From Minisyncoccota bacterium (GTDB taxonomy: Bacteria; Patescibacteriota; Minisyncoccia; Phycocordibacterales; UBA2100), in assembly GCA_035708165.1 (NCBI GenBank), contig DASSSZ010000005.1:40719-104718 (forward strand): DNA of 64,000 bases, given 5' to 3'. The notes beneath the pieces are model-generated. The model was not told where the DNA came from and did no database searches. It was given only the letters and a program-made list of their open reading frames with translations. The translations under genes were made by a program, and so were the position numbers. The stretch's first letter is position 1; each line of letters begins with the position of its first letter. This document shows positions 5,281 to 46,382 of the stretch, piece by piece.

Positions 5281-5294
5281 GGAAGAGTCCGGGA

Positions 5295-8596: not shown

Positions 8597-8601
8597 CTTA
8601 T

Positions 8602-9797: not shown

Positions 9798-9882
9798 TAA
9801 CGGTTTCGAACTCATTCGAATTCAGATGCGCTGAAGCTGCATAATTTGCTTGAAGAGCTAAAAAGCACAGTACAATGAGAAC

Positions 9883-10278: not shown

Positions 10279-10350
10279 ATAAGAAACACCCGGCTCGTGA
10301 GAGTCGGGTGCTAGCTTGAAGAACTGTTCGCTAGGGTTTTTCCTGCCGGG
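10272..10350. repeat. repeat element R3 (hairpin with one G-U wobble)
   Basis: gagctgaataagaaacacccggctcgtgagagtcgggtg...ttttcctgccgggg. It overlaps the 3' ends of the convergent genes 9883..10278(+) and 10331..10768(-). Confidence 0.7.
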
Positions 10351-29508: not shown

Positions 29509-29574
29509 CGTGTCGCCTTGCAGGCGCCGCGATGGTGTAGTACAGTACCCGCACCCCGAATACGGGCTATTTTC

Positions 29575-29988
29575 ATGGCAACCATCAATCAGCTCACTCG
29601 CAAGAATCGCCGCAACCCGGTACGCAAGGCGCGCACGGTGGCGCTTTCGCGCGGGTTCAATGCCGTGAAGAACCGCCCGAATTACTACAACTCGCCGTTC
29701 AAGCGCGGCGTCTGCACGAAGGTCACCACCAAGACCCCGCGCAAGCCGAACTCCGCGATCCGCAAGATCGCTCGCGTCCGTCTCACGAACGGGATGGAGA
29801 TCACGGCGTACATCCCGGGCGAGGGCCACAACCTCCAGGAGCACTCGGTGGTCCTGGTCCGCGGCGGCCGCGTGAAGGACATCGGCGTCCGCTATACCAT
29901 CGTGCGCGGCAAGCTCGATGCCACTGGCGTGGAGAAGCGCAAGAATGGCCGCTCGCGCTACGGCGGCAAGAAGCCGAAGGGCGAGTAA
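29575..29988 (+). CDS. rpsL: 30S ribosomal protein S12
   Basis: [10 protein letters not shown]... PNSAIRK... [31 protein letters not shown]. Confidence 0.95.
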
Positions 29989-30003
29989 TCATCACGTAAT
30001 CCC

Positions 30004-30465
30004 ATGCGTCGCCCTGTCCACAACCGCAATATCCCCGTAGCCGACCCGCAGTACGGCTCGGTCCGCGTCTCGAAGCTCATCAACAGCATCATGCTGGATG
30101 GGAAGAAGGATGCCGCGACCAAGATCGTCTATGACGCTTTCGCGATGCTGAAGGACGAGGGCGATCCGGTGGCCGTCTTCGAGACCGCGCTCGAGAACGT
30201 CGGTCCGCAGGTGGAGGTGCGCAGCCGCCGCGTCGGCGGTGCCAACTACCAGGTGCCGGTGGAGGTCCGCCCGGAGCGCCGTCTTGCGCTCGCGCTGCGC
30301 TGGATCATCAACGCGGCTCGCGCGAAGGAGGGCACGCCCATGTCGGCGCGCCTCGCGAACGAGATCCGTTCCGCGGCCCACAACGAGGGCGAGGCCGTCC
30401 TCAAGCGCGAGAACGTCCATAAGATGGCGGAGGCGAATAAGGCGTTTGCGCACTTCGCCTGGTAG
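30004..30465 (+). CDS. rpsG: 30S ribosomal protein S7
   Basis: Conserved uS7 sequence across 153 aa. Confidence 0.95.
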
Positions 30466-30801
30466 CCGGAATCTCATTCTCGGCACGTTGCTTTGCCGAA
30501 AGCCCCTGATCCTTGCCCGCCGTACCATCAGTACGGGCCGCAATGCTCAGGGGCTTTCTTCGCGCACCGCACTCGAGAATGGCTCCCTTGCGCAGCTCGC
30601 TCCCTCAGTCCAGCGCCTCGCAATGCATCCGAACCCCGGACGCTCCTGATATCCGCCGCATACGGCGAAGCCGTGCATCGGCGCTCCCTTTGCTATACTT
30701 GCTCGCGTAAGCCCATCGATGCATGCCCTCAGCGCTGCCTCGCGCACGAATAACAGGGCGATGGCGGCTCTGCAGGCGTTATCCGGTAACGAACCGTTCA
30801 T

Positions 30802-31002
30802 ATGGCAGACATGACGAACATGCGTCATAAGGATTGGAGCGGGATGTCCGAGGATCAGAAGGACGTGGTGCGAGAGAGCATGCGCAACTGGCGCAGCTGG
30901 GGCTCCTGGTTCTCGTGGGGCTCGCCCGTGGGATTGGGTCTCTGGTTCATCGCGCTCGGGATCACTGCGGTCCTGGCGCGCATCGCGTTCATCGGGTTCT
31001 GA
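30802..31002 (+). CDS. small membrane protein (66 aa, W-rich)
   Basis: Hydrophobic C-terminal helix. It is followed directly by a strong terminator. Confidence 0.45.
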   Translation: MADMTNMRHKDWSGMSEDQKDVVRESMRNWRSWGSWFSWGSPVGLGLWFIALGITAVLARIAFIGF

Positions 31003-31012
31003 GGACTCTCGC

Positions 31013-31045
31013 AGAAGCCGCCCCCCTTGGGGGCGGCTTCTGTAT
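31013..31045 (+). terminator. rho-independent terminator (agaagccgcccccc tt gggggcggcttct)
   Basis: 13-bp perfect stem read directly. Confidence 0.65.
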
Positions 31046-31146
31046 ATGCGCCGGAATTCAGGCGCCATTCATGCCGGAAGGTTCATACATGGTTCAGCGT
31101 GGCGGGCGCACTGTGCGGAAAGACTTCTGTTCTGTACTATCAGGCT

Positions 31147-32199
31147 ATGGAGACTGACATGCACCCTCAGCATCCAATCCCGCGACCCAAGGTCGTGACG
31201 CTTAGCGGCGGCACCGGAGGGTTTACCGTCTTGCGCGGCTTGCGGGACCAGCTGCTCGACATCACGGCGATCTGCACCGTCTTCGATAGCGGCGGATCGA
31301 CGGGCGTATTGCGCGACCAGTACGGCGCGCTCCCGATGGGCGACGAGCGTCGCTGCCTCTTGGCGCTCATTCCCGAGGAAGACGCCGGCTGGCGCGACCT
31401 CATGATGGCTCGTTACGAGGCGAACGGCTCGCCGCTCTCGAATCACTCGCTCGGCAACCTGCTCCTGCTCTCCGCAGAGAAGCAGTGGGGCCGCTTGGGC
31501 GGCATCGCCCGCCTCGGCGAGCTGCTGCACATCCGCGGACGCGTGCTGCCGGTCTCGACCGACGACGCGCATCTCACGGCGGAGCTTTCCGATGGCTCTA
31601 TCTTGCGCACCGAGGCGGCGATCGACACGCGCGATCCGCTCACGGATGAGCGGGGCATCTCGCGGGTATGGCTCGAACCGTCGGCGCATGCCTGCCGCGA
31701 TGCCATCCAGGCGATCGAGGAGGCGGACGTCATCGTGATCGGTCCGGGCGATCTCTTCACCTCGGCCATCCCGAACCTTCTGCCGCGCGGCGCCACTGAA
31801 GCGATCAATGCCTCGACGGCGCAGCTGGTCTATATCGCGAACATCATGACCAAGGGCGCGGAGACGCGCGGCTACTGCGCCGCCGACTTCGTCGATCAGC
31901 TCTGCAGGCACGGCATCGCCCGCGCCTTCGATCACGTGCTCATCAATACGACGCCGATCCCGGATGACCTCCGGGCGCTCTACTGGGAAGAGGATCGCGC
32001 CGAGCCAGTCACCTTCGACGCTGCGTGCCGCGCCCGGCTGCTCGTTCGTGCGCGGAATATCGTGGAGGCGCCGCTCCTCTCAGGCACGGGCCTCCGGGAG
32101 CGTTTGCTGCGGCACAGCTCGAAGGCGATCGCGAAAGAGATCATGACGATCGCCGAGCACGTCCTTGAGCCGGCTATGCCGGTGCAGGCTGTCGCTTGA
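31147..32199 (+). CDS. YvcK/CofD-family (UPF0052, gluconeogenesis factor / 2-phospho-L-lactate transferase-like) protein
   Basis: VVTLSGGTGGFTVLRGL ... ICTVFDSGGSTGVLRDQYG signature of the CofD/YvcK family. Confidence 0.7.
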   Translation: METDMHPQHPIPRPKVVTLSGGTGGFTVLRGLRDQLLDITAICTVFDSGGSTGVLRDQYGALPMGDERRCLLALIPEEDAGWRDLMMARYEANGSPLSNHSLGNLLLLSAEKQWGRLGGIARLGELLHIRGRVLPVSTDDAHLTAELSDGSILRTEAAIDTRDPLTDERGISRVWLEPSAHACRDAIQAIEEADVIVIGPGDLFTSAIPNLLPRGATEAINASTAQLVYIANIMTKGAETRGYCAADFVDQLCRHGIARAFDHVLINTTPIPDDLRALYWEEDRAEPVTFDAACRARLLVRARNIVEAPLLSGTGLRERLLRHSSKAIAKEIMTIAEHVLEPAMPVQAVA

Positions 32200-32364
32200 T
32201 CCTGATCCTGTTCGAACCTGCGGCGCGCCTCATCGGCGCGCCGTTTCTTTGCGGGAGAAGAAGGGAGAGTTGACACAATATTGATTCCGTATTATTCTCC
32301 TTTCCGGAAAAGCTGCCGAAAGGCAGCGTTTTTGTGTCTTTGACCTGCAACATTGAGGAATCAG

Positions 32365-32733
32365 ATGAGAATGGAAGGGTATGCGGGAGCGCTGCTCCTG
32401 ACGCTTGCGGCCTGTGCGGCTGCGCCTGCGTATGCGGACAGCGCCTCTGCCGACTGGAACTCGACCGCGGGATTCTCCTCGCCGAGCCAGGACGCGAACG
32501 CGTTCAATGCCGCGCAGGTGATCCAGCTGCTGAATCATGGCAGCGCGGGTCCGTCCGTGGTCACGAATACGATGAACTGCGCGGTCCCAGGCTCATGCCC
32601 GACGGCCGGCACGCAGGAGAACCTCTCCGGCGTCACCATGACGACGGTGAACGGCGGCTCCGGCATCTCGATCGACACGTCGACGTCTTCGCGCGCGACG
32701 CAGAGCAACGGCATCACCATCGATACCAAATAG
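32365..32733 (+). CDS. small secreted protein / putative lipoprotein (LTLAAC lipobox), S/T/N-rich
   Basis: GAGGAA RBS lies 4-5 nt upstream. Signal peptide and S/T/N-rich low complexity are present. The track start 32353 is a TTG. Confidence 0.45.
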   Translation: MRMEGYAGALLLTLAACAAAPAYADSASADWNSTAGFSSPSQDANAFNAAQVIQLLNHGSAGPSVVTNTMNCAVPGSCPTAGTQENLSGVTMTTVNGGSGISIDTSTSSRATQSNGITIDTK

Positions 32734-32743
32734 GGAGGGCGCG

Positions 32744-33628
32744 ATGCGCTTCATCAAGATACTCGCCGGTATCGGAGCCCTCACGCTGCTCGCCCTGCCG
32801 CTGGCCGGGTGTGCGACCGTGAGCGGCTCGACAGGGCTGCGCGATGAGGTCCCGATCAAGGATCCGCCCATCGTGAAGGAAGTCTCGACGCCGTATGCCG
32901 ATGCGATGGCATGCGTCGCCAGGATCCCGGTCGTCAGGCATCTGAAGATCGGGGTGGGCGACATCCGCGACCTCACCGGCAAGGTGAACACCTCGTCGGA
33001 TGACGCCACGGGCGACTTCGTCACCCAGGGCGCATCGCAGATGATGTATTCCGCGCTGGGGCGGCTCGGCGTCGAGCTCATCGATATCGGCGCTGATTAC
33101 AAGAACACCGTTGACTGGTTCGGCAGCAAGGGCTCGAAAGGGCGCGTCGCGATGCCGCAGTTCATGGTGGGCGGTGCCGTCGATGCGCTCGACTTCGGGC
33201 AGACGAGCTCCGTCTTCCAGGCGCAGCTCTTCGGCTTCGGGCCGAATGTCCGCGCCTACGCGGCGACCGGCCGGATGGATCTCCATCTGACCACGCTGCC
33301 GGAAGGAAGCACGGTCGGCGGCGAGGTCGCAGCGACGAGCTCGTTCGCGAAGGTGTTCCTTGCGCGGCAGTCCGGAGCAGGCGGCGGCACGTTCGTCGGC
33401 GCCGCTCCGGGCCTCACGTTCGCCTCCTTCCAGATCGGCAGCGAAGCCCGCGAGCCGATGCAGGAGACGATCGGCTTCATGACCGATTTCGGCGCGACCG
33501 ATCTCGTCCTGAAGCTCCTCAGTTCCTTGCATGCCGCGCCTCCTCGGGAGGTCGCGATGTGCCGGAAGCTGCTCGTCGACCCGCACGGGCCGGCGGCAAG
33601 GCCGATCACGCTCGCTTCGGCGAAGTGA
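32744..33628 (+). CDS. CsgG-family lipoprotein (curli-type outer/secretion channel family)
   Basis: Lipobox LAGC is present. IGVGDIRDLTGK...ATGDFVTQGASQMMYSALGRLGVELID and FMVGGAVDALDF...FGFG resemble the CsgG fold motifs. Length is ~294 aa, as in CsgG. Confidence 0.6.
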   Translation: MRFIKILAGIGALTLLALPLAGCATVSGSTGLRDEVPIKDPPIVKEVSTPYADAMACVARIPVVRHLKIGVGDIRDLTGKVNTSSDDATGDFVTQGASQMMYSALGRLGVELIDIGADYKNTVDWFGSKGSKGRVAMPQFMVGGAVDALDFGQTSSVFQAQLFGFGPNVRAYAATGRMDLHLTTLPEGSTVGGEVAATSSFAKVFLARQSGAGGGTFVGAAPGLTFASFQIGSEAREPMQETIGFMTDFGATDLVLKLLSSLHAAPPREVAMCRKLLVDPHGPAARPITLASAK

Positions 33629-33732
33629 GCCGGCGCCCATGGCACTTGCCTGCATGAAAGGCACATGCTATGGTTCTGGCTCGCTGGCATCCGCCGGCGA
33701 GTGCAACACCCAACGAAAGGGATACATTGCAA

Positions 33733-34227
33733 ATGCGTTTTCGTTCTTTGGCATCCGCCGCTATCCTGATTGCTTCCGCTGCCTTCGCCATGCCGGCCCT
33801 GGCCGCGTCCCCGTCGACCAATATCGTGATCGACACGGGCGCGAGCAAGGTGCTGCAGGCGAACCTGAGCGGCGACGTCGGCGATACGGTGAAGATCGAC
33901 CAGACCAATGCGCTCAATGTCGTCGACCTCACGGGCGACAACATGTCGAACGCCACGGTCAGCGCGTCGGCCGCCAAGGTCATCCAGGCGAACGTGGGCG
34001 TGGGGATCGACCTCAGCTCCGGCATCGTCAAGGATACTCAGACCAATGCGGCCAACGTGGTGGACGCGGTGCTGACGAACGTCGGCAACTCGAGCGTGGA
34101 CAAGGTCAGCGCGACCATGCACAAGGTCGCTCAGGTCAATGTCGGCGTGAATCTCCCGCTCATGGGCGGCACCGCCGTCTCCGACCAGGTCAATGCCGGC
34201 AACATCGTTTCCGTCAAGATCAAATAA
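33733..34227 (+). CDS. secreted Q/N/V-rich protein with three imperfect curlin-like ~40-aa repeats
   Basis: Signal peptide (AAFAMPALAAS) is present. The repeats are KVLQANLSGDVGDTVKIDQTNALNVVD, KVIQANVGVGIDLSSGIVKDTQTNAANVVD and KVAQVNVGVNLPLMGGTAVSDQVNAGNIV. The track ORF 33670.. is an extension. Confidence 0.5.
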   Translation: MRFRSLASAAILIASAAFAMPALAASPSTNIVIDTGASKVLQANLSGDVGDTVKIDQTNALNVVDLTGDNMSNATVSASAAKVIQANVGVGIDLSSGIVKDTQTNAANVVDAVLTNVGNSSVDKVSATMHKVAQVNVGVNLPLMGGTAVSDQVNAGNIVSVKIK

Positions 34228-34239
34228 GGTCGCATCTCC

Positions 34240-34273
34240 GAGCCTCGGCATCTGCCGAGGCTCTCCTTTTTAT
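34240..34273 (+). terminator. rho-independent terminator (gagcctcggca tc tgccgaggctc + tcctttttat)
   Basis: 11-bp perfect stem plus T5. Confidence 0.7.
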
Positions 34274-34449
34274 GCGCCGCAGGATCGCGCAGGAGGCATC
34301 CGCGCGCTGCATCTTGCGGCGAGGAGCCGCACAGGAGCGCCGTTTTGCAATCGCCTCCGTTTCCTGGTACTCTTCGGGCACGCTTCGCGCGGCTTTTTAT
34401 TTGCATTCGCGCGGCCGCGCACTACTTATTTACTTCATCGATACGAGCT

Positions 34450-36624
34450 ATGGCACGAGATTATCCGCTTGAGAAAGTCCGCAATTTCGGCATCGTCGCG
34501 CACGTGGATGCCGGCAAGACCACCACGTCCGAGCGCATCCTCTTCTATACGGGCATGAGCCACAAGATCGGCGAGGTGCACGAGGGCGGCACCATCACCG
34601 ACTGGATGGAGCAGGAGCGCGAGCGCGGGATCACCATCACCGCCGCTGCCATCACCTGCTTCTGGACGCCTACGTATGCGCGCCTCGGCGCGGACAACGT
34701 CGCGCAGGCGACCGACGGGCAGAACCCGAAGCGCCACCGCTTCAATATCATCGACACCCCGGGGCACATCGACTTCACCTCCGAGGTGCAGCGCTCGATG
34801 CGCGTCCTCGACGGCGCGATCGTGGTGTTCGACGGCGTGGCCGGCGTGGAGCCGCAGTCCGAGACTAACTGGCGCTACGCCGAAGAGGCGAGCGTGCCGC
34901 GGCTGTGCTTCATCAACAAGCTCGACCGAACCGGTGCATCCTTCGAGCGCTCCTTCAAGAGCATCCGCGAGCGCCTCTCGAAGAATGCGTACCGCATGCA
35001 GCTGCCGGTCGGCGAGGAAGCCAACTTCGACGGCGAGGTGGACCTGCTCACGCGCAAGATGTTCGTCAACTCAGGCGCGATGGGCGAGATCGTCACGATG
35101 GCCGACGCGCCGGAGTCCATGAAGGACGATATCGAGACGTACCGCGCCGAGCTGATCGAGAAGATCGTGGAGCAGGACGAGGCCGCGATGAACGCGTACC
35201 TCGAGGGCAATGAGCCTGATCTCGACACGCTGAAGGCGCTCCTGCGCAAGGCCGTGATCGCCAATGAGATCTTTCCGGTCTACTGCGGCGCGTCGCTGAA
35301 GAACCGCGGCGTGCAGCCGATCCTCGATGCGGTCATCGACTACCTGCCGTCCCCTCTGGACGTGCCGGCAGCGAAGGGCGTCAATCCGGACACCGGCGAG
35401 GAGGAGTTCCGCGAGGCATCTGACGAAGCGCCGTTCTCCGCGCTCGCGTTCAAGCTCCAGACGGACCCGTTCGTGGGGCAGCTCACGTTCATCCGCGTGT
35501 ACTCGGGCAAGCTCGAGAGCGGCGGCTATGTCTACGATGCCAATAACGGCAAGAAGGAGCGCGTCGGCCGCATCGTGCGCCTGCAGGCGGACAAGCGCGA
35601 GGAGATCAAGGAGATCTACGCAGGCGAGATCGCCGGCCTCGTGGGCATGAAGGAGGTGAAGATCGGCCATACGCTCTGCGACGAGACGCACCCGATCCAC
35701 CTCGAAGAGATCAATTTCAAGCAGCCGGTCATCTCGATGCGCATCGAGCCGAAGACCAAGGCGGACCAGGAGAAGATGGGCATCGCGCTCAACAAGCTCA
35801 CCGACGAGGACCCGACGCTGCGCGTGACGACTGACCCGGAGACGATGGAGACTATCCTCTCGGGCATGGGCGAGCTGCACCTCGAGATCATCGTGGATCG
35901 CATGAAGCGCGAGTTCGGCGTCGAAGCGACGACCGGCAAGCCGCAGGTGGCGTACCGCGAGACCATCCAGGGTACTGCCGATAAGGAGGTGAAGTACATC
36001 AAGCAGACGGGCGGTCGCGGCCAGTACGGCCACGTGAAGCTCCGCGTGAAGCCGCTCGAGCCGCTTGCCGAGGGCGCGAAGATCCCGAACAACGTCCATC
36101 GCGAGGACCACTTCGAGTTCATCAACAGCATCAAGGGCGGCGTCATCCCGGCTGAGTACATCCCGGCAGTAGAGAAGGGGGTGCGCGAGTCCCTGACCCG
36201 CGGCGTTCTCGCCGGCTTCCCGATCGTGGACGTCTCGGTCGAGCTCTACGACGGCTCGTATCACGAGGTGGACTCTTCGGAGATCGCCTTCAAGATCGCA
36301 GGCTCGCAGGCATTCCAGGAAGCGGCAGCGGCAGCGCGGCCGGTCCTCCTCGAGCCGATCATGAAGCTCGAGGTCGTGACGCCGGAGAAGTTCCTCGGCG
36401 ACGTGAACGGATCGATCAGCAGCAAGCGCGGCGTCGTGGAGCGCATGGACGCGCGCGGCAATGATACGGTGATCGACGCGAAGGTCCCGCTCTCCGAGCT
36501 CTTCGGCTACACCACGCAGCTGCGCTCGATGACGGAAGGCCGCGCGACGCCGGTCATGGAATTCGACCACTATGCGGTCGTCCCGAAGAACGTCGCGGAC
36601 GAAGTGATCGCTACGAAGCGATAA
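34450..36624 (+). CDS. fusA: elongation factor G
   Basis: NFGIVAHVDAGKTTTSERIL, DTPGHIDF and the full five-domain EF-G length. It is preceded by TTGCAA-17-TACTCT and a T5-containing leader. Confidence 0.95.
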   Translation: MARDYPLEKVRNFGIVAHVDAGKTTTSERILFYTGMSHKIGEVHEGGTITDWMEQERERGITITAAAITCFWTPTYARLGADNVAQATDGQNPKRHRFNIIDTPGHIDFTSEVQRSMRVLDGAIVVFDGVAGVEPQSETNWRYAEEASVPRLCFINKLDRTGASFERSFKSIRERLSKNAYRMQLPVGEEANFDGEVDLLTRKMFVNSGAMGEIVTMADAPESMKDDIETYRAELIEKIVEQDEAAMNAYLEGNEPDLDTLKALLRKAVIANEIFPVYCGASLKNRGVQPILDAVIDYLPSPLDVPAAKGVNPDTGEEEFREASDEAPFSALAFKLQTDPFVGQLTFIRVYSGKLESGGYVYDANNGKKERVGRIVRLQADKREEIKEIYAGEIAGLVGMKEVKIGHTLCDETHPIHLEEINFKQPVISMRIEPKTKADQEKMGIALNKLTDEDPTLRVTTDPETMETILSGMGELHLEIIVDRMKREFGVEATTGKPQVAYRETIQGTADKEVKYIKQTGGRGQYGHVKLRVKPLEPLAEGAKIPNNVHREDHFEFINSIKGGVIPAEYIPAVEKGVRESLTRGVLAGFPIVDVSVELYDGSYHEVDSSEIAFKIAGSQAFQEAAAAARPVLLEPIMKLEVVTPEKFLGDVNGSISSKRGVVERMDARGNDTVIDAKVPLSELFGYTTQLRSMTEGRATPVMEFDHYAVVPKNVADEVIATKR

Positions 36625-36644
36625 CCGATCGCACATGCATACCG

Positions 36645-36677
36645 AACGGCCGCGCAGATGCGCGGCCGTTCGTTATG
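36645..36677 (+). terminator. rho-independent terminator (aacggccgcgc agat gcgcggccgtt)
   Basis: 11-bp perfect stem after fusA stop. Confidence 0.65.
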
Positions 36678-36733
36678 CACAGCAAGCGGACGATGAGGAA
36701 AACGATAGGGTGTGCGTTTGCTATGATAGTGGC

Positions 36734-37174
36734 ATGCCGCCCGTCACTGAGATGCATGAGGAGAAGCCGCTCATGCGGCATGTGATCCAGCTCCTGATCG
36801 TACTTGTCGCGCTCATCTGCGCTGGCGTGCTCGCGTACCTCACGCAGCGCTATCTGTACAGCCGTACCGTCTCGGGCACTCCAGGCGCGACAGCCGACTA
36901 CTCGACGACCACTCCGGAGGAGCTGACGCTCCAGCAGAAGATGGAGGTGCTGCAATCGCTCGAGTCAGGCAAGGCATCGGGTACGGGCACGCAGGTCACG
37001 GGAGTAGCTTCCGGGACAGTGTCATCCGAGGGGAATGAGGCTCCCGCAAATGATGCGCGCACGCAGACGCTCGATCAGCTCGATGCGCAGCAGCAACAGC
37101 AGCAGGGCGACGATGGCGATGACTCCGGCATGAGCGCGCAAGAGAAGCTTAACCTCCTGAACTCGCTCCACTAA
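36734..37174 (+). CDS. membrane-anchored low-complexity protein with polyQ
   Basis: TM helix LLIVLVALICAGVLAYL. An S/T/G-rich region and QQQQQQ from a CAG/CAA tract at ~37088-37105 follow. Confidence 0.45.
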   Translation: MPPVTEMHEEKPLMRHVIQLLIVLVALICAGVLAYLTQRYLYSRTVSGTPGATADYSTTTPEELTLQQKMEVLQSLESGKASGTGTQVTGVASGTVSSEGNEAPANDARTQTLDQLDAQQQQQQGDDGDDSGMSAQEKLNLLNSLH

Positions 37175-37179
37175 TACGT

Positions 37180-38124
37180 ATGACGGCCCGTCGCACCAAG
37201 AAGAAATCGAACGAGCAATACGCGGTGCTGCTCAAGCAGCTGGGCGGTCTCATCGCGGTGACGATCCTGATCGCCGCTGCAACCGCGTTCATCTCCGCGA
37301 CGCCGCGCCACGCCTCCGCGACCGGCGACCCAGCCCTTTCCGGCTATCTATGGAGCGATACGATCGGCTGGATCAGCCTCAGCTGTACCAATACCGGCAC
37401 CTGCGGCACGCACAATTACGGCATGTCGATGGCCAGTTCCGGCGCACTTTCCGGCTATGGCTGGAGCGATAGCATCGGCTGGGTATCCGCCAATCCTTCC
37501 GATACCTCTGTCTGCGGCAGCCAGGCGACAGTGAGCACGAGCGGATCGGTCACCGGCTGGTTACGCGCGATTTCCGGCGGCACCTCGCAATCCGGCGGCT
37601 GGAACGGCTGCATCTCCCTCTCCGGGAGCGGCTATGGCGTGACATTCAATACGGCGAACGGCGCATTCGGCGGCTATGGCTGGGGTGACACGAATGTCGG
37701 CTGGGTGGATTTCTCCAAGGCGAGCGCTGTAGCATCGTGTACGCCGCAGAATATCTGCATCGGCAATAGCACGTACAATCAGAACGCCTATTGCCAGCAG
37801 ACGCTCATAAAGACGTGTGCTGGCACGTGCAGCAATGGCATCTGCTCGGAAGACCTGCCGCCGCCCACAGGAACGCTCATCGTCGCGCCGACCTTGGTGC
37901 GCGAAGGCATGAGCACGCAGGTCTCCTGGGATTCTGATGAGGCGTACGCCTGCCAGGTGACCGGCAGCAACGGCGATTCCTGGAGCGGTACGAGCGGGAC
38001 GAAGACGAGCAGTCCGATTACCGATACGGTCACGTATACGCTCTCATGCAAGAACGATGGCGGCAGCATGTCGGTCATCAAGAAGGTGAGTGTCTACCTC
38101 GTCCCGGTTTACCACGAGATCTGA
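37180..38124 (+). CDS. membrane-anchored surface protein with three LSGY-W-D-IGW repeats and a Cys-rich C-terminal domain
   Basis: The three repeats are LSGYLWSDTIGWISLS, LSGYGWSDSIGWVSAN and FGGYGWGDTNVGWVDFS. An N-terminal TM anchor and 14 Cys are present. Confidence 0.5.
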   Translation: MTARRTKKKSNEQYAVLLKQLGGLIAVTILIAAATAFISATPRHASATGDPALSGYLWSDTIGWISLSCTNTGTCGTHNYGMSMASSGALSGYGWSDSIGWVSANPSDTSVCGSQATVSTSGSVTGWLRAISGGTSQSGGWNGCISLSGSGYGVTFNTANGAFGGYGWGDTNVGWVDFSKASAVASCTPQNICIGNSTYNQNAYCQQTLIKTCAGTCSNGICSEDLPPPTGTLIVAPTLVREGMSTQVSWDSDEAYACQVTGSNGDSWSGTSGTKTSSPITDTVTYTLSCKNDGGSMSVIKKVSVYLVPVYHEI

Positions 38125-38292
38125 TCGCGGGATCTCCCGAAACGGCTGCACTATCGCTGAGCGATGGTACGCGTTACTGTGCTGGCGCGCATGCTGGTGG
38201 CATGCATACGGCCCGGAAGCGTATAGTGCAGTTATCCCCAACGCGAGATGCATGCGCCGGCAAAGGAAACTCATGCGCGGTACACTAAACGC

Positions 38293-40089
38293 ATGTTGAA
38301 ATCTCACATGCCGACACGTCGTGAGTTCTTCCTCCTCGCATTCCTCTTCGCCTACACCATCGCCTTCAGCGGCGTCGTCCTCGCCTGGACTGGCCCGACT
38401 GCGAGCGCGCCATCGAACAACGTCTCTGCCCCGATCAATGTCGGCTCAACCGCTCAGATCAAGACGGGCGGGTTCTGGGCCTCTTCCATCGGTTCGGATT
38501 CCGGCTACTGCATCGGCAGCTCGTGCATCACGAGCTGGCCGTCCGCGAGCACTGATCTCTGGACTAAGAGCGGATCGAGCATCTATTACAACACTGGCAA
38601 CGTCGGCATCGGCGTCACGAGCCCGTACTTCGCGCTGCAAGTCGATCAACCGTCCGCGACAGGCGGCGGCATCGCAGTCTCCACGAGCGGCCAGGATGGT
38701 AGTGCGCTCAATGGTATCAGTAACAGATATTCATATACACAGACCTCAAGCGCCACCCGGTACCCGATCGGGAATGCCAATTCCATTTACGCTAAGATCG
38801 CTTCCGGCGTGACGAACTCCGGCTACGTGATGGGTATTGACGACACGATCCTGCGCAACTACGCCGCGAATAGTGCCGATGACGGCACCCTCGCGAGTCT
38901 CATCGGCGAGCGCATCCAGTATGGCCACTACAATGTCGATCCGGGTTCGACACCGGTGACGACCGCTGCGATCGGCATCGAGATCAATCCGCTCGCATAC
39001 ACCGGCTCGATCGGCACCATGTATGACCTTCTCCTCTCCGGATCGAGCGGGAGCGATTTCGGGACGCACTACGGCATCTACCAGTCAGGCTCAGCGTTGA
39101 ACTATTTCGGAGGGAAGGTCGGCATCGGTACCTCGAATCCCAGCGCCACCCTCGACGTCAACGGCACTGCAGTCATTGGCCGCCCTTCGGATTATTGGGC
39201 TACCAGCGGCTTTTATGGTGTCAGTGGCTTAGGTCAGCTCAGCACGGACGGCTCTTATGAGACCTCCCTCACTTCAAACGGCTATCGTAACTCGAGCGGC
39301 ACCTGGACCTCTTACGGTGCGAATGGCTACACTGGTGCCTCTCAGATCGCCCTCAGTCCGCAGGGCTACATCGACTTTCGTGCCGACACATCGAAAGCTT
39401 CAGGTAGTGCGACTCACCCTGACACGGTCATGCGGATTACGCCTGCGGGGAGTGTGGGAATTGGCACCGCTTCGCCTGGCACCAAGCTCACCGTCGCTGG
39501 TGAGATCACGTCCACGAACGCCAACGCATTCCGCATGGCCTACGGCAACTACGGCGCATTCTGGCGCAACGACGGCAGCAATACCTACTTCCTCCTCACG
39601 AACTCGGGCGATCAGTACGGCACGTGGAACTCCCTGCGGCCGCTTACCATCAACGATTCGAGCGGGGCAGTGACGGTCGGGACAGGCCTTACGGTGAGCG
39701 GGAATGTCTCCGCAAGCGCCTTCCTCTATACCTCCGACCAGTCCCTCAAGCACAATGTGCAGACGATTCCCGACGCGCTCTCGCTGGTCGAGAAGCTGCG
39801 TGGCGTGATGTTCAACTGGAACAGCGATGATCGTCCCGATATGGGTGTGATTGCGCAGGAGGTGCAGAAGGTCCTCCCGCAGCTCGTGCACACCGATGCG
39901 GCGACCGGACTCGAATCAGTCGAATACGGCAACTTCATCGGCATTTTCATCGAGGCGATCAAGCAGGTGCAAGGAGAGGTGACGAATCTTCAGCAAGAGA
40001 ATGCGCAATTGACGCAGCAGAATGCGCAGCTCACGCAGGAAGTGCAATCGCTCGATGCACGTGTTTCAGCGCTTGAAGCGGCACGGTAG
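38293..40089 (+). CDS. tail-fibre-like surface protein with C-terminal peptidase-S74-type intramolecular chaperone domain and terminal coiled-coil
   Basis: C-terminal SDQSLKHNVQTIPDALSLVEKLRGVMFNWNSDDRPDMGVIAQEVQKVLPQLVHTDAATGLESVEYGNFIGIFIEAIKQVQ matches the endosialidase/tail-spike chaperone domain pattern (SD..K.NI..l...L..l...Y.w......GviAQEv..v.PelV). An N-terminal TM anchor is present. Confidence 0.65.
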   Translation: MLKSHMPTRREFFLLAFLFAYTIAFSGVVLAWTGPTASAPSNNVSAPINVGSTAQIKTGGFWASSIGSDSGYCIGSSCITSWPSASTDLWTKSGSSIYYNTGNVGIGVTSPYFALQVDQPSATGGGIAVSTSGQDGSALNGISNRYSYTQTSSATRYPIGNANSIYAKIASGVTNSGYVMGIDDTILRNYAANSADDGTLASLIGERIQYGHYNVDPGSTPVTTAAIGIEINPLAYTGSIGTMYDLLLSGSSGSDFGTHYGIYQSGSALNYFGGKVGIGTSNPSATLDVNGTAVIGRPSDYWATSGFYGVSGLGQLSTDGSYETSLTSNGYRNSSGTWTSYGANGYTGASQIALSPQGYIDFRADTSKASGSATHPDTVMRITPAGSVGIGTASPGTKLTVAGEITSTNANAFRMAYGNYGAFWRNDGSNTYFLLTNSGDQYGTWNSLRPLTINDSSGAVTVGTGLTVSGNVSASAFLYTSDQSLKHNVQTIPDALSLVEKLRGVMFNWNSDDRPDMGVIAQEVQKVLPQLVHTDAATGLESVEYGNFIGIFIEAIKQVQGEVTNLQQENAQLTQQNAQLTQEVQSLDARVSALEAAR

Positions 40090-40099
40090 TTTAGGGGGC

Positions 40100-41317
40100 A
40101 TGATCGGTTTCGATTCTCAGCAACATGCCATATCACGACGATTCCTACGTCTGAGAGCGTGCAGGCTCTTTATCGGCAAGATTCTCTCCCTAGCCCTCAG
40201 TATCATCGTGGCGGTCGGCATACTGCCGATTCCTGCATCAGCGGCGAGCGGCTCGCAGTCCTACACGACTCCGGGGACGTATACGTTCACCATACCGGCG
40301 AACTACACGTCGCTCACCGTGCAGGTGTGGGGAGGTGGAGGCGGCGGAGGTGCATTGGGCGGCGGAGGCGGCGGCGCATACAATACGAAGACATTCGCTG
40401 CAGGCGCGTTGTCGGGATCGGTGACAGTGACGGTGGGTGCCGGCGGCGCCGGCATGCCGTTCGACTCGTACACGTCTGGCGGTGTGACTGGCGGCACGAG
40501 TAGCTTCGGATCGTATGTTGCTGCCTATGGCGGCGGAGGAGGAGGAGCCGGTTCGAATTCGGCGTATGCCGGTGCCGGCGGCGGCGGACAAAGCGCTGCG
40601 GGCCAGATCGGAGGGTACACGTCCGGCGGCGCGGGCGGCAGTCCGTCCGGCGGCGCGGGCGGCGCATCATCGATAGGTGGTAGCAAGCAGGCTCAGACGA
40701 CCGCTCAGCCTGGAGGTAATTCCGTATATGGCGGCGGAGGCGGTGGCGGCATAGCTATCAATTCTATCTCGAATGGCGCAGCGGGTGGCTCCTCGACGTA
40801 CGGCGGCGGAGGCGGCGGAGGCTTCGGGGGCGCCAATAGTTCGGGCGCAGGCGGCTCCTCGACCTACGGCGGAGGCGGTGGCGGGGCAGGGGAGGATAAC
40901 AACGGCGCGCACGCGGGTGCGGGTGGCTACTCGACGAGCGGCGGCGCTGGAGGTGCGGGCTGCAACCTGACCAGTTCTCTCGCTGTCATTTCTCCTGCGC
41001 AGTCCGGTTACTTCCCGGCGGGCGGAGGCGGAGGCGGATACAGGCAGAGCTGTGTCGGCGGCAATGGCGCAGGCGGCGAAGTCGTCATCACCTGGACCGC
41101 TTCGAACTGCCCGACGGCCATCACATCCGCAGCGGGCGGTAAGGGATTCCAGCTCCTCGCGAACATCGCGAATCGGCTGATCAGCGCCGTCGGCATCAAT
41201 ACATGCGTCACGAACACCACCGGCAACAGCTACTTCATCCCTTCGAATACCGCAGCTGAACTGCAGAGCTTCCTGAACGCGGCCTCCCGCCTCGGCGTGA
41301 CGGTGTTCACACCGTAG
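40100..41317 (+). CDS. secreted glycine-rich-domain protein (TFTIPANYTSLTVQVWGGGGGGG motif)
   Basis: RBS AGGGGG is present. A signal/anchor is followed by long G-rich repeats (GGGGGG.. SSTYGGGGGG). The C-terminal module NTTGNSYFIPSNTAAELQSFLN is shared with the N-terminus of 42280..43029. Confidence 0.55.
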   Translation: MIGFDSQQHAISRRFLRLRACRLFIGKILSLALSIIVAVGILPIPASAASGSQSYTTPGTYTFTIPANYTSLTVQVWGGGGGGGALGGGGGGAYNTKTFAAGALSGSVTVTVGAGGAGMPFDSYTSGGVTGGTSSFGSYVAAYGGGGGGAGSNSAYAGAGGGGQSAAGQIGGYTSGGAGGSPSGGAGGASSIGGSKQAQTTAQPGGNSVYGGGGGGGIAINSISNGAAGGSSTYGGGGGGGFGGANSSGAGGSSTYGGGGGGAGEDNNGAHAGAGGYSTSGGAGGAGCNLTSSLAVISPAQSGYFPAGGGGGGYRQSCVGGNGAGGEVVITWTASNCPTAITSAAGGKGFQLLANIANRLISAVGINTCVTNTTGNSYFIPSNTAAELQSFLNAASRLGVTVFTP

Positions 41318-41459
41318 CGAGTTACCCACAGGCACTCCCTGTCATCCCCTCAATGCGGTGTCGCGGTCGGCTCTCGATGAGCATCTAGTGCTGCACGTCT
41401 GCTCATTCCTGTGCACATTCCGCATCAATCGACCGGAAATAGGCGGGTATACTAGAGAC

Positions 41460-42299
41460 ATGATGCTCGTGGTTCCTGAGGTGGGCGATGTATCGCGATG
41501 TGCCGGCGCACGCGCATCGCGCGGCGAAATTCGCACGGAGCTGCTGGCGTTTGTCGGGCTGTGCATCGCGCTCTGCCTCGTCGGTCTAGCATACTATGCC
41601 TCCCAGTATCGGCAGGGGGCATCGGCGGCCGCATCTTCTGCGGCTTCCCATGATACGACCGCGCTGGCGCTCTCGTCGACTGAAGTGAGCACCTCCTCAT
41701 TGCCGGCGACCTTCGCGCCTGCGAGCGACACGGTGACCCTCTACGAATTCGATTCATTCGATCCATCCTGCACCTCGTGCGCAGGCGTGCATGCAGCGGT
41801 CATGGCGGCGGTCGCGTCCCTGCCGAGCAGCGCGGTGTATCATTTCCGCGCGTACCCGATCGCACGTCCGCTCTCGGACGATGCGTCCTCGACGCCAGTG
41901 TTCGATCCGCGCGACATCCTGGGGCTGTGCATCGCCTCGGCCACACAGGCGCAAGGTGATGGTGCGATCCTCGCGTATGCCGCAGCTGCATACGCGAGCG
42001 CGAGCGCGACGCCTGATGCGCTTCTGAGCGCGATCCCTGCTGCGGATCGCGATGCGGCGGAGAACTGCGTCGCCGCGATGCCCGAGAACGACATGCCGAT
42101 CACCGATGTGCTCTCACGGTACCAGTACGACCAGGTGCCGAGCGCGCCCGCCGTATTCATCCAGATTCCGGGCGTACCTGATCCGATTTCGATCGGCGCT
42201 GACCCGAAGAACATCGCGGCCGTGCTGCAGTCGCTGGTCGCCGACCCGGCCGGTTTCGCCGCATCGCTGAGGGAGCAATATGAGAAACGTGCGCAGTAG
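41460..42299 (+). CDS. membrane-anchored thioredoxin-fold protein, DsbA-like (CxxC = CTSC), tentative
   Basis: VTLYEFDSFDPSCTSCAGVHAAV resembles the DsbA active-site context (..vEFfsy.CphC). A TM anchor is present. A TATACT -10 lies upstream. Confidence 0.4.
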   Translation: MMLVVPEVGDVSRCAGARASRGEIRTELLAFVGLCIALCLVGLAYYASQYRQGASAAASSAASHDTTALALSSTEVSTSSLPATFAPASDTVTLYEFDSFDPSCTSCAGVHAAVMAAVASLPSSAVYHFRAYPIARPLSDDASSTPVFDPRDILGLCIASATQAQGDGAILAYAAAAYASASATPDALLSAIPAADRDAAENCVAAMPENDMPITDVLSRYQYDQVPSAPAVFIQIPGVPDPISIGADPKNIAAVLQSLVADPAGFAASLREQYEKRAQ

Positions 42300-43029
42300 G
42301 AAATGGCAGCTGTTCTGCCTGTGCGCGGCAGGCGCCGTGCTCGTGCTTGGCGCGCGCGAGGCGTTCGCCATCAATGCGATCTCGGAAGGATTCAAGGTGA
42401 ACGGCACAAGCCAGCAGATCAGCGCCTATAGCAGCTGCTACGAAGCGAATTCGACGAACGGCGCCGCGTATTTCTTTCCGTCGAAGACCTCGACCGAGTT
42501 CAGTTCGTTCGTGAACCACAAGCCCGCAGCCGTGAACCTGAACGCATGTCAGATGCTGACCGGCGGGAAACATACGGCTGTCGACTGCTCCGGAGCCGGG
42601 GGATCGACATTCGACGGCCTCTGCAAATTCGCCGGATCGGTCTGTCCGTCAAGCTGGACAGCTTCCGGCTACGTCGACTGGCCGAGCTTCTCGTGTTCTG
42701 CGGTCTCTTCGTATGTGTGCGATGCGGGCACGCAGTACACCGGACCGACGAGCTGCAGCGGCGGGAGCAGCTTCTCTTCTTCTGGCATCACGCCTTCCTG
42801 CTCGTATGGTTATACCTCGAGCTCGTACGGAGCGTACACCACGTACGGATGGACCAACCCTCCATGCGGGTATCAAGACGTCTGCGGCGGGTTCCCGTAT
42901 AGCTGCACGCTTCAATATGTGTGCCCGGCCCCTGTATACGGGCCCATCACGGCGTATGGAGAGATTTGCTCGCCAGTGTCGGAGACCTGCAGAGAGCCAT
43001 ATGCTCCAAGCGCGATTTATTGCGAATAG
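42280..43029 (+). CDS. secreted Cys-rich protein (about 25 Cys)
   Basis: Signal peptide is present. The N-terminal module AAYFFPSKTSTEFSSFVN is similar to the C-terminus of 40100..41317. The C-terminal half is Cys/Tyr/Ser/Gly-rich. Confidence 0.5.
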   Translation: MRNVRSRKWQLFCLCAAGAVLVLGAREAFAINAISEGFKVNGTSQQISAYSSCYEANSTNGAAYFFPSKTSTEFSSFVNHKPAAVNLNACQMLTGGKHTAVDCSGAGGSTFDGLCKFAGSVCPSSWTASGYVDWPSFSCSAVSSYVCDAGTQYTGPTSCSGGSSFSSSGITPSCSYGYTSSSYGAYTTYGWTNPPCGYQDVCGGFPYSCTLQYVCPAPVYGPITAYGEICSPVSETCREPYAPSAIYCE

Positions 43030-43096
43030 ATCTCACCGAGATACGTTATCAACAAGCGGGCGCCGGCGAATGGCCGCCGTGGTGTAATCTAATGGC

Positions 43097-44902
43097 ATGA
43101 ATAGTAACGGTAATGATGGCATGCACTCATTGCGCCGCTCCCTCGCCGGGCTTTCAGGCCGCAGCAACCTCTTCCTCCTCGCATTCCTCTTCGCCTACAC
43201 CATCGCCTTCAGCGGCGTCGTCCTCGCCTGGACCGGCCCCACGGCAAGCGCGCCATCGAACAACGTCTCTGCGCCGGTCAATGTCGGTGCGACGAGCCAA
43301 ATCAAAACCGGCGGCTTCTGGGCTTCTTCTATCGGCTCCGACAATGGCTACTGCATCGGTAGCTCGTGCATCACCTCGTGGCCCTCTGGCCTTGGCGGCT
43401 CGGGATCGACGAACTATGTCCCGAAGTTCACTGCCGGCACGACCTTGGGCAATTCGCTTATCTCCGACAATGGTTCGACGGTCGTCGTGCACGGTACTGG
43501 CAACACCACGACCTGGGCATTCGAAGGCTTGGGTGGCTATGAAGGCGTCTACGGCTCTGGGACCAACATCGGCCTCTATGGCGCCACGTCGGGCAGTACC
43601 GGCGGCTGGGCGATCGAAGGCGTCGGCAGCAACACCTCGAGCAATGGCATCTACGGGCAGGGAACCAATGTCGCGACGGAAGCATACAACCCGACGAGCG
43701 GCAGCCGTGTCTATCTTGGCTACGGGAACTATGGCATCTACTCCAGTGCGCCGACTAACTACTTCAGCGGCAACGTCGGGATCGGCGATTCCTCGCCCTC
43801 GACCGATCTCGACGTGGCGGGCGATATCTGGACGTCAGCGGCAGGCAGCGGCCGCAGCTCGTTCTATGACCTGGCTGGTGGCAAGATCGCCGCAGGCTCG
43901 AGCCTCTATTCGTACGGCGACATCTGCACCGGCAACAACAGCGGCGCGTGCACTGGTACGGGCGGCGTCGTGATCGGCAATACGAATGCATCCGCTGCGG
44001 TGAACGTCACGAATGCCGGTACTATCCGCACGAACGGAGAAGTGCAATCCGCTTCAGCGAACGCCTTCCGCATGGTCTACGGCAACTACGGCGCCTTCTG
44101 GCGCAATGACGGTTCGAATACTTACTTCCTTCTCACCAATTCCGGTGATCAATATGGCACCTACAATTCGTTGCGTCCGCTCTGGATTAATGATGCGAAT
44201 GGGAGTGTCGGGATCGGTACGTCGTTGAGTGTGCCGAGCATCAAATTCTCTGATGGTACGACGCAGACGACGGCAGCGACCGGAGGGAATTCGCATGCGC
44301 AGATATTCACCTCAAGCGGTACCTGGACGAAGCCTTCCGGAGTCAATGTGGTTATCGCGCAATGCTGGGGCGGTGGAGGTGGTGGACTGTCCGATCCGAG
44401 TTATCACCAGGTTGATGCTGGCGGTGGTGGCGGAGGATATCTTGAAATGACGTTTGCTGCGTCTCAAATCGCCTCATCAGTAGCGGTTACGGTGGGCGGC
44501 GGCGGTGCGGGGACAACCTCGAGTGGACAGACTGCCTATGCCGGCAATGGTGGTACGTCAAGTTTCGGACCCTATCTCTCCGTGCAGGGCGGGAGCGGTG
44601 CTTACCACATCACTAATAATAGCGCATGGACTCCTGGGGCTGGTGGTGGCGGCGGGCTCTATGGTCCGGGGAATGGCGGATCCGGTGCATCTGGCCAGTC
44701 GGGCTCGACGATGGCAGTTGGGGCAGGGGCTTCGGCATTCGGTGGTGGTGGCGGTGGTGGTGGGACCACGGTTTCTAGCGGAGGAACATCTCAGAATGGA
44801 GGAGCCGGCGGAGCGGACGGTTATGCTGGTGCTGCACCAGGCGGCGGCGGAGGTGGCGGTGCATCGGGTGCCCGCGGGGAGTGCATCATTTACTCCTACT
44901 AG
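43097..44902 (+). CDS. tail-fibre-like surface protein, mosaic paralog of 38293..40089 with C-terminal glycine-rich domain (TWTKPSGVNVVIAQCWGGGGGG motif)
   Basis: The N-terminal ~85 aa are near-identical to 38293 gene, and a shared central block is ANAFRM.YGNYGAFWRNDGSNTYFLLTNSGDQYGT. The C-terminus is G-rich like 40100 gene. Confidence 0.6.
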   Translation: MNSNGNDGMHSLRRSLAGLSGRSNLFLLAFLFAYTIAFSGVVLAWTGPTASAPSNNVSAPVNVGATSQIKTGGFWASSIGSDNGYCIGSSCITSWPSGLGGSGSTNYVPKFTAGTTLGNSLISDNGSTVVVHGTGNTTTWAFEGLGGYEGVYGSGTNIGLYGATSGSTGGWAIEGVGSNTSSNGIYGQGTNVATEAYNPTSGSRVYLGYGNYGIYSSAPTNYFSGNVGIGDSSPSTDLDVAGDIWTSAAGSGRSSFYDLAGGKIAAGSSLYSYGDICTGNNSGACTGTGGVVIGNTNASAAVNVTNAGTIRTNGEVQSASANAFRMVYGNYGAFWRNDGSNTYFLLTNSGDQYGTYNSLRPLWINDANGSVGIGTSLSVPSIKFSDGTTQTTAATGGNSHAQIFTSSGTWTKPSGVNVVIAQCWGGGGGGLSDPSYHQVDAGGGGGGYLEMTFAASQIASSVAVTVGGGGAGTTSSGQTAYAGNGGTSSFGPYLSVQGGSGAYHITNNSAWTPGAGGGGGLYGPGNGGSGASGQSGSTMAVGAGASAFGGGGGGGGTTVSSGGTSQNGGAGGADGYAGAAPGGGGGGGASGARGECIIYSY

Positions 44903-45185
44903 CGCCTCGCAAGCCTCTGAAAGACGCGCGGAGCCTGCGGCCCGCGCGTCTTTCGCGCGTATGCACCGGTTGCGCATATGGCTTGACGTAGCGCATATGC
45001 TTGGATAGTATTGCGGCACGCAGAGGCGTTTTTTGTTTGCTCATTGCCAGGCCGGAATCAGCCACACTGGGCGGCAGGATCGCATACTGCACCTTATTAT
45101 CCAGCGGAGTTGCTAGAGAAGAGGGAAGGTTCTCGTGCCCCCATCTCTGGTAGCTCGGTTCGTATGGCTAACTACTGATAATCGT

Positions 45186-46382
45186 ATGGCAGCAGATTTC
45201 GACCGTTCGAAGCCGCACGTCAACGTCGGCACCATCGGCCACGTCGACCACGGCAAGACCACGCTGACCGCCGCGATCCTCCACGTCATCAGCATGATGG
45301 GCGAGGGCTACGGCGCGAACGTGAAGGGTGTCGACCAGATCGACAACGCCCCGGAGGAGCGCGAGCGCGGCATCACCATCGCGCTTTCGCACAACGAGTA
45401 CTGGACGCCGACCCGCCACTACGCGCACATCGATGCGCCGGGTCACGCGGACTATATCAAGAACATGATCACGGGTGCCGCCCAGATGGACGGCGCGATC
45501 CTCGTGGTCGCCGCGACTGACGGCGCCATGCCGCAGACGCGCGAGCACATCCTCTTGGCTCGCCAGGTCGGCGTGCCGAAGATCATCGTCTTCCTCAACA
45601 AGGTGGACATGGTCGACGACGCCGACATGATCGACCTCGTGGAAGAGGAGATCCGCGATCTCCTCGGGAAGCAGGAGTTCGACAAGGACTGCCCTGTCAT
45701 CCGCGGCTCGGGCCTCAAGGCGCTCGAGGCATCGAGCATCGATGACGAGTGGGCGCAGAAGGTCGCCGAGCTCGTGAAGACGATGGATGAGTACATCCCG
45801 ACTCCGGAGCGCGACACGGCCAAGCCGTTCCTCATGCCGATCGAGGACATCTTCTCGATCGAGGGCCGCGGCACCGTCGTGACCGGCCGCATCGAGCGCG
45901 GCGTCGTGAAGACGGGCGAGGAAGTCGAGATCGTGGGCATCAAGCCGACGACCAAGACGACCGTGACCGGCATCGAGATGTTCAACAAGCAGCTCTCGGA
46001 GGGGCAGGCTGGCGACAACGCCGGCATCCTCCTGCGCGGCACCAAGAAGGAGGACGTGCATCGCGGCCAGGTCCTGGCAGCGACCGGCTCCGTCAAGCCG
46101 CACACCGAGTTCGAGGCCGAGGTCTACGTCCTCTCGAAGGATGAGGGCGGCCGCCACACCCCGTTCTTCAGCGGGTACAAGCCGCAGTTCTACCTGCGCA
46201 CCACGGACGTGACCGGCGAGGTGACCCTGGCCGATGGCGTCGAGATGGTCATGCCGGGCGACACCGCGACCTTCAAGGTCAAGCTCGTGGGCCCGGTGGC
46301 GCTTGAGGAGCAGCAGCGCTTCGCGATCCGCGAAGGCGGCCGCACCGTCGGCGCCGGCGTCATCACCAAGATCGTCGCCTAA
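45186..46382 (+). CDS. tuf: elongation factor Tu
   Basis: [20 protein letters not shown]... Full-length EF-Tu. Promoter TTGACG-17-TAGTAT lies at 44983-45011. The track ORF 45135.. is an extension. Confidence 0.95.

Follow-up and report, generated by a model that had tools for sequence, protein, structure and literature searches.

A three-gene operon with export signals lies upstream of fusA

The 64,000 nucleotides (nt) analysed here, referred to as the window, correspond to positions 40,719 to 104,718 of contig DASSSZ010000005.1 from an ultra-small bacterium of the candidate phyla radiation (CPR). They contain, at window positions 32270-34273, a single plus-strand operon that runs from a promoter through three genes, each with an export signal, to a strong terminator; its middle gene encodes a lipoprotein of the CsgG superfamily. 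An N-terminal hydrophobic signal sequence is present on all three products. The initial annotation of this DNA had described three open reading frames (ORFs) at these positions, closed by a strong terminator, and both descriptions were borne out by the features below.

32270..32298, plus strand: sigma-70-like promoter, TTGACA-17-TATTCT (10 of 12 positions matched; on average 0.2 such sites in this region after shuffling)
32312..32327, plus strand: G+C-rich leader hairpin GCTGCCGAAAGGCAGC, then GTTTTTG (6-bp stem, 5 G-C pairs)
32365..32733, plus strand: gene 1, ORF for a predicted secreted, S/T/N-rich protein of 122 amino acids (aa), with the ribosome-binding site GAGGAA 5 nt before the start
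32744..33628, plus strand: gene 2, ORF for a CsgG-superfamily lipoprotein of the HfaB-like branch, 294 aa, with the ribosome-binding site GGAGGG
33733..34227, plus strand: gene 3, predicted secreted repeat protein of 164 aa: ~25-aa signal peptide, then three repeats
34240..34273, plus strand: intrinsic terminator ending the operon (hairpin 34240-34263 with a 10-bp stem, 8 G-C pairs and a 4-nt loop; T-rich tail)

Genes 1 and 2 are separated by 10 nt and genes 2 and 3 by 104 nt, and the terminator hairpin at 34240-34263 is followed by TCCTTTTTAT. The promoter-like site directly follows the terminator of an upstream cofD-like gene. The leader hairpin is itself terminator-like and lies inside the operon leader, ~15 nt 3' of the predicted -10 box, where it could act as an attenuator or as a 5' stabilising stem; Rfam and tRNA scans of the window gave no matches, and the hairpin likewise has no Rfam family. 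G+C content is uniform at ~0.64 across the module (0.643) and the same as that of the genome. The product of gene 2 is identical to 'hypothetical protein VFL98_02935' from a Candidatus Paceibacterota metagenome-assembled genome (MAG), where it lies on a contig of 178,732 bp.

Gene 2 encodes a CsgG-superfamily lipoprotein of the HfaB-like branch

Among named families, gene 2 matched NCBIfam HfaB (NF037935) best, with an E-value of 3.6e-13 and 49.3 bits over residues 19-114 only. Searches with the single sequence were otherwise sub-threshold (Pfam, see below) or empty (phmmer against the PDB, no match), so that profiles were needed. An exhaustive HMMER search of 1.84 billion representatives with a three-sequence gene 2 profile returned 376 proteins at E<=1e-3, 13 of them at E<=1e-30; word-indexed homologue searches had retrieved 3, 1 and 4 proteins. 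Among the best 97 of the 376 relatives (alignment A5), 96 matched the HfaB model and 77 matched Pfam CsgG (E<=0.001, best 8.5e-23). A family profile built from the 97 sequences aligned with the E. coli CsgG chains of the PDB at an E-value of 2.7e-27 over residues 5-245.

Three features of gene 2 have the following positions:

32801..32812, plus strand: lipobox L-A-G-C, residues 20-23, with Cys23 as the predicted lipidated first mature residue
33200..33262, plus strand: TM1 hairpin equivalent, residues 153-173, aligned with E. coli CsgG mature residues 134-154
33365..33448, plus strand: TM2 hairpin equivalent, residues 208-235, aligned with E. coli CsgG mature residues 184-208

The lipobox is invariant in the six closest homologues and kept in most of the 14-member clade, and the family also keeps the HfaB-type loop DxTGK...GTGxFxTQGA. 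Cys57 is invariant and Cys273 present in at least 90% of the 97-sequence alignment; the two probably form a disulfide.

An AlphaFold2 model of gene 2 computed with the 97-sequence alignment reached a predicted local distance difference test (pLDDT) score of 89.5 and a predicted template-modelling (pTM) score of 0.80. When this model was compared with the PDB by Foldseek, the best 25 matches were all CsgG, headed by the pore chains 6l7a and 4uv3 (best E 8.5e-15, TM scores 0.57/0.67, identity 16-19%). It fitted membrane-inserted CsgG (6l7a, 4uv3; root-mean-square deviation 5-6 Å) better than the soluble pre-pore 4uv2 (10-11 Å). Long strands were modelled at the TM1 equivalent, and strands 195-218 and 225-236 around the TM2 equivalent. 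In a residue-by-residue alignment, both hairpins keep their alternating hydrophobicity across the CPR clade, which together with their conserved length argues for continued selection on a lipid-facing barrel.

Profile and fold comparisons together place gene 2 as a CsgG-superfamily lipoprotein of the HfaB-like branch. The initial annotation had assigned it to the CsgG family, and this is upheld by the profile match to solved CsgG and by fold matches to CsgG pores at E ~1e-14. Its proposed check against Pfam CsgG gave a divided answer, positive for 77 of the 97 aligned relatives and below threshold for gene 2 on its own.

The three genes travel together in CPR genomes

The close clade of gene 2 is rare and consists mostly of singleton clusters, whose named members are Paceibacterota or Kaiserbacteria. 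We found the three-gene unit in 12 distinct loci (the window, L001, L004, L005, L009, L007, L008, L020, L010, L021, L019 and L014), with the third gene of L004 cut off by the contig end. Wherever the contig reaches far enough, a homologue of gene 1 lies directly upstream and a homologue of gene 3 directly downstream of the CPR-clade gene 2; locus retrieval with alignment A6 reached the CPR clade only. The surroundings of the trio differ between loci, with at least three genomic contexts: rpsG-cofD on one side and fusA on the other in the window; secDF and a gene for an AAA_18-domain protein in the Kaiserbacteria locus; and, judged by eye, ORFs resembling an RNA-recognition-motif (RRM)-type RNA-binding protein and a PrmC/HemK-like methyltransferase in L007, L008 and L010. 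The trio is shown to have been inherited and relocated as one unit, in keeping with its original description as a single module. Identity of gene 2 within the CPR clade is 37-52%, compared with ~25-31% to non-CPR relatives, and all ORFs are intact. This divergence with intact ORFs argues that the genes function in these cells and are neither contamination nor a dead recent import.

One locus carries a further gene of interest. In L014 (a Logan SRR22388261 contig), positions 3698-5293 encode P0016, a protein of 531 aa in which an HfaB-like domain is fused to a polysaccharide deacetylase (PF01522; HfsH-like in NCBIfam, E 8.8e-11). Its gene lies directly upstream of a second complete module, in which the gene 1 homologue encodes 171 aa, the HfaB-like gene 281 aa and the gene 3 homologue, on the plus strand, ~220 aa. 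The gene caller had placed this gene 3 homologue on the wrong strand. The HfsH-like fusion beside a module is a weak hint of a connection to polysaccharide.

Gene 1 belongs to a family of small upstream partners

The gene 1 family (alignment A8, n=8) keeps an A-x-A signal-peptidase-I cleavage site. Gene 1 carries the motif AS-x-DWN-x-S-x-GF-x-S, which reads AS-x-DW-N/G-x-S in A8, then a short helix, an N-C-x5-C pair and an S/T/N-rich tail ending in G-x-I-x-I; W31, C72 and C78 are invariant in A8. The 'LAAC' cysteine of gene 1 occurs in only 2 of the 8 homologues, those of the window and of L009. Because this cysteine is not kept in the family and the A-x-A site is, we judged lipoprotein status of gene 1 unlikely, which makes the earlier label 'small lipoprotein' doubtful, and its product is probably a normal secreted protein.

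Comparison by hhalign matched the gene 1 family to the gene upstream of the Arenibaculum CsgG/HfaB-family gene (probability 96.2%, E 2.3e-9) and to a profile built from five partner genes that do not belong to the CPR clade, of which three are from named Alphaproteobacteria (probability 95.5%, E 1.4e-8). Searches with hmmsearch likewise detected upstream genes outside the CPR clade in L015 (E 2.4e-9) and L011 (E 2.6e-7). At the level of profiles, gene 1 is a homologue of the small gene upstream of proteobacterial CsgG/HfaB-family genes, in the position of HfaA. It represents a recognisable family (motif AS-x-DW-x-x-S-x-x-F-S-S) that matches no current Pfam or NCBIfam model.

Gene 3 encodes a repeat protein with a ~44-residue unit

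The initial annotation had noted three imperfect repeats in the secreted protein that follows gene 2. These repeats are real: the best internal local alignment of gene 3 scored 89, compared with 34.7 +/- 5.8 (maximum 52) in 200 shuffles (z ~9), and the three mutually alignable units of ~44 aa are arranged as follows.

33820..33957, plus strand: repeat 1, residues 30-75, invariant Gln42
33958..34095, plus strand: repeat 2, residues 76-121, invariant Gln85
34096..34224, plus strand: repeat 3, residues 122-164, invariant Gln134

The mature protein (139 aa) is rich in V/N/A/S/G/T/D and lacks aromatic residues, Cys, Arg and Glu. From the family alignments (A7 and an 11-member alignment) we derived a repeat consensus over 30 repeats of ten members, x-I-N-V-G-v-x-T-x-n-V-x-Q-x-A-x-A-x-A ... 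(turn) ... A-t-A-T-A-A-N-a-v-v-S-v. Every one of the 30 has the same Gln. A strand-turn-strand stacking unit would be expected to show just such an alternation of small with hydrophobic residues and a polar ladder position. No NCBIfam model matched the gene 3 family. As far as sequence comparison goes, gene 3 appears to be a fast-evolving repeat partner restricted to this clade. It represents a compact repeat protein of a new kind and a candidate for amyloid or fibre formation.

We also considered homology of gene 3 to the downstream partners in proteobacterial trios (described below) or to CsgA. Since only signal peptides or insignificant motifs aligned, this claim was rejected, and what we retain is a resemblance at the level of motifs.

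A probable surface-assembly operon and its alternatives

We consider it probable, with considerable room for doubt, that the module is a self-contained three-gene CsgG/HfaB-type surface-assembly operon in Candidatus Paceibacterota, of the same kind as hfaA-hfaB-hfaD of Caulobacter and the proteobacterial trios. Beyond the export signals, fold, homology and synteny described above, the mechanism proposed here is drawn by analogy with CsgG and HfaB. All three products would be exported by Sec, and gene 2 would be acylated at Cys23 and oligomerise into a ring. This ring might pass, stabilise or nucleate the products of genes 1 and 3 on the cell surface, where the two partners would assemble into a stable anchor or adhesin that may be amyloid-like. 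An epibiotic CPR cell could use it to attach to a host cell, to a surface or to a polysaccharide. The most likely role of the gene 2 lipoprotein, on this analogy, would be to help bring both partners to the cell surface, where they act as an anchor or adhesin.

Several results weigh against this surface-assembly operon. Gene 2 alone scored 14.3 bits (E 0.026) with Pfam CsgG (PF03783), below the gathering threshold of 20.8, and its 49 bits with NCBIfam HfaB are under the 300-bit equivalog cut-off of that model. At the positions of the CsgG constriction residues Y51, N55 and F56, the clade has S/Q/A, G/A and T/N instead. The case for gene 3 as possibly a fibre or amyloid subunit consists solely of its repeats and composition: Pfam Curlin_rpt (PF07012) matched neither gene 3 at E<=1 nor any of 7 family members at E<=10, hhalign to E. 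coli CsgA aligned the signal peptide only (probability 3%), comparison with the proteobacterial downstream partners by hmmsearch and hhalign gave signal peptides or insignificant TAAN-type motifs only, and a single-sequence AlphaFold run was uninformative (pLDDT 40.7). The likeness to Hfa is one of layout and of an HfaB-type lipoprotein. Lastly, Patescibacteria have been proposed to lack an outer membrane (PMC12102498), so the canonical outer-membrane barrel topology may not apply, and the amphipathic barrel hairpins that the clade keeps despite this pose a topological difficulty. Three topologies are possible: a tethered ring without membrane insertion, an unrecognised outer layer, or another target membrane such as that of the host.

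The first of these topologies would make gene 2 no pore at all. The lipoprotein would stay attached to the cytoplasmic membrane, on its outer side, in a ring or cage resembling the pre-pore, and would act as a chaperone or nucleation platform for Sec-exported partners in the wall zone. The proposed lack of an outer membrane in Patescibacteria (PMC12102498) fits such an arrangement, as do the presence of the solved soluble pre-pore CsgG 4uv2 among the fold matches and the Cys57/Cys273 pair, which suits an extracytoplasmic protein; an ungated barrel in the sole membrane would, moreover, be expected to harm the cell. However, neither hairpin has lost its length or its alternating hydrophobicity anywhere in the CPR clade, and the gene 2 model fits the membrane-inserted form better than the pre-pore. 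We regard the tethered ring as unlikely, though not negligible. A functional lipid-inserting barrel, kept in a clade held to be monoderm, would instead require an unrecognised outer lipid layer, or a ring that is inserted with its partners into the host-cell membrane as an attachment or conduit device; this seems to us a long shot.

A canonical curli (type VIII) system, with gene 3 as a divergent CsgA-type amyloid subunit secreted through an outer-membrane CsgG nonamer, is close to what the initial annotation suggested when it compared the repeats of gene 3 to curlin repeats and described a minimal CsgG-dependent secretion unit. Gene 2 does have the CsgG fold, and gene 3 has a signal peptide and Q/N-containing imperfect repeats whose invariant Gln loosely recalls the Gln/Asn ladders of CsgA. 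Yet the Curlin_rpt search, which had been put forward as the check on this comparison, matched 0 of 7 family members, the alignment to CsgA was confined to the signal peptide, and the unit of ~44 aa (compared with ~22 aa) follows another consensus. In addition, the operon, three genes between cofD and fusA, lacks csgB, csgE and csgF; gene 2 is nearer to HfaB than to CsgG and is devoid of the CsgG constriction residues; and the host lineage is proposed to be without an outer membrane (PMC12102498). We consider curli very improbable here. What stands of the minimal CsgG-dependent unit is a CsgG-family lipoprotein within a three-gene unit; the likeness to curlin repeats falls away, and so, probably, does the lipoprotein nature of gene 1.

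Of all explanations, the least credible to us is that the module was recently acquired from a proteobacterium, or is a binning or assembly contaminant, without a role in the CPR cell. All named nearest relatives from beyond the clade belong to the Proteobacteria, most of them to the Alphaproteobacteria, and some are plasmid-borne; the module also interrupts an otherwise conserved rpsL-rpsG-fusA-tuf arrangement. Nevertheless, its G+C content of 0.643 equals that of the genome, it is set among core genes on a 178-kb contig, and the named clade members come from independent Paceibacterota and Kaiserbacteria MAGs of different studies. Clade identity of only 37-52% with three intact ORFs, and of only ~25-31% to non-CPR relatives, speaks against it as well. 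On G+C content, core-gene setting, independent MAGs and clade divergence with intact ORFs, contamination or recent transfer was rejected.

CsgG and HfaB are textbook outer-membrane components, in which a lipoprotein barrel independent of the beta-barrel assembly machinery (BAM) exports amyloid-like surface proteins. The module is unusual because its host is a CPR bacterium, from a lineage believed to lack the outer membrane in which such a pore would sit, and no paper linking CsgG with CPR bacteria was found in the literature searched. The novelty lies in finding a module of the CsgG/HfaB type, together with a new repeat partner, in a lineage that gave no reason to expect one. An intact, hairpin-bearing CsgG/HfaB member with dedicated partners poses a concrete question about the CPR envelope, and the module is a candidate attachment device for host-attached CPR bacteria, whose host-contact machinery is largely unknown. 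More broadly, the trio of small partner, CsgG/HfaB protein and low-complexity partner is a widespread, unannotated three-gene unit.

Genes and features surrounding the module

The module is flanked in the window by the following features.

31027-32199: upstream CofD-family gene (PF01933, E 1.3e-70)
32220-32244: separate terminator of the cofD-like gene
34345-36624: fusA, downstream of the operon

The window also encodes rpsL, rpsG, fusA and tuf, comEC-like and recJ-like ORFs (Pfam) and a pilB/GspE-like ORF (by eye). The rpsL-rpsG-fusA-tuf arrangement (29518-46382) is broken twice, by the cofD-like gene and the module between rpsG and fusA and by a fibre-like cluster between fusA and tuf. The latter comprises ~8.5 kb of surface- or fibre-like genes (36635-44902). 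Among their products, two have a phage long-tail-fibre Gp34 trimerisation domain, which one of them combines with an intramolecular chaperone domain of the Peptidase_S74 type; two others are Gly_rich_2 proteins, and a further one, of 314 aa, carries several copies of the motif GY(L)WSDxIGW and has no match in Pfam. Together with the Hfa-like module, this cluster makes the str operon region a cluster of surface-structure genes.

Elsewhere in the window, a patch of low G+C content (8600-10300; 0.48 compared with ~0.64 elsewhere) encodes three small multi-pass membrane proteins, two of which are clear paralogues that share ...ALxYGMxALAxxFxALxLVPxAFSWWWKFAIWxVPL... The patch lies between a 1066-aa LCAT/alpha-beta-hydrolase-like secreted protein and a gene that, by eye, resembles PilB/GspE, and is possibly a foreign insertion.

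Comparison with known systems

The E. coli curli machinery shares one component with the module. Gene 2 resembles E. coli CsgG (4uv3, 6l7a, 6si7) in being a lipoprotein, in its alpha/beta core and in its two hairpins; those of CsgG build a 36-stranded barrel in the nonamer. Identity between the two is only 16-19%, and gene 2 does not keep the Y51, N55 and F56 constriction residues. Further, in contrast to csgBAC/csgDEFG, the module comprises three genes between the cofD-like gene and fusA and is without CsgE, CsgF, CsgB or a curlin-repeat subunit; the initial annotation had already reported csgA/B/E/F to be absent, and none was found in the three-gene operon.

Of the systems described so far, the holdfast anchor HfaA-HfaB-HfaD of Caulobacter crescentus, and not canonical curli, comes closest; since HfaB is the nearest named family of gene 2, HfaA-HfaB-HfaD is the better analogue. 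In Caulobacter, HfaA and HfaD depend on the CsgG-like lipoprotein HfaB for their stability and for their placement on the surface; the two form multimers resistant to heat and sodium dodecyl sulfate (SDS) that tether the holdfast polysaccharide (PMC6707917; bioRxiv 10.1101/2022.07.20.500906). As in the hfa operon, the gene order is small secreted protein, CsgG-like lipoprotein and further secreted protein, an order kept in the 12 loci, and both gene 2, by best match among named families, and 96 of its 97 aligned relatives, by the HfaB model, point to HfaB. Unlike Caulobacter HfaB, gene 2 reaches only 49 bits against the cut-off of 300, with its N-terminal 96 residues matched, and, unlike Caulobacter, a stalked alphaproteobacterium with an outer membrane, the host of the module is a CPR bacterium. 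In the window, we saw no genes for holdfast polysaccharide (hfs) next to the module; in the Kaiserbacteria locus, glycosyltransferases were found 4-6 kb from it.

The same three-gene layout occurs in Arenibaculum sp. (DASYHS010000269), on a Brucella pseudintermedia plasmid (NZ_CP137606) and on a Pacificitalea manganoxidans plasmid (NZ_CP021408), and we found no functional study of these proteobacterial operons in the literature searched. On the Brucella plasmid, the trio (115120-118568) is flanked on one side by a two-component system and on the other by genes for an outer membrane protein and then an EAL-domain protein, and the Pacificitalea HfaB-like protein has a ~250-aa C-terminal low-complexity extension; both partner genes are annotated only as hypothetical on the two plasmids. 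The proteobacterial operons differ from the module in their diderm hosts and in a downstream partner of 250-310 aa with the motifs TAANIGNS and AAGAVNTG and no detectable homology to gene 3. They agree with it in an upstream partner homologous to gene 1 and in a lipoprotein that has, as gene 2 does, the GTGxFxTQGA loop and the Cys pair.

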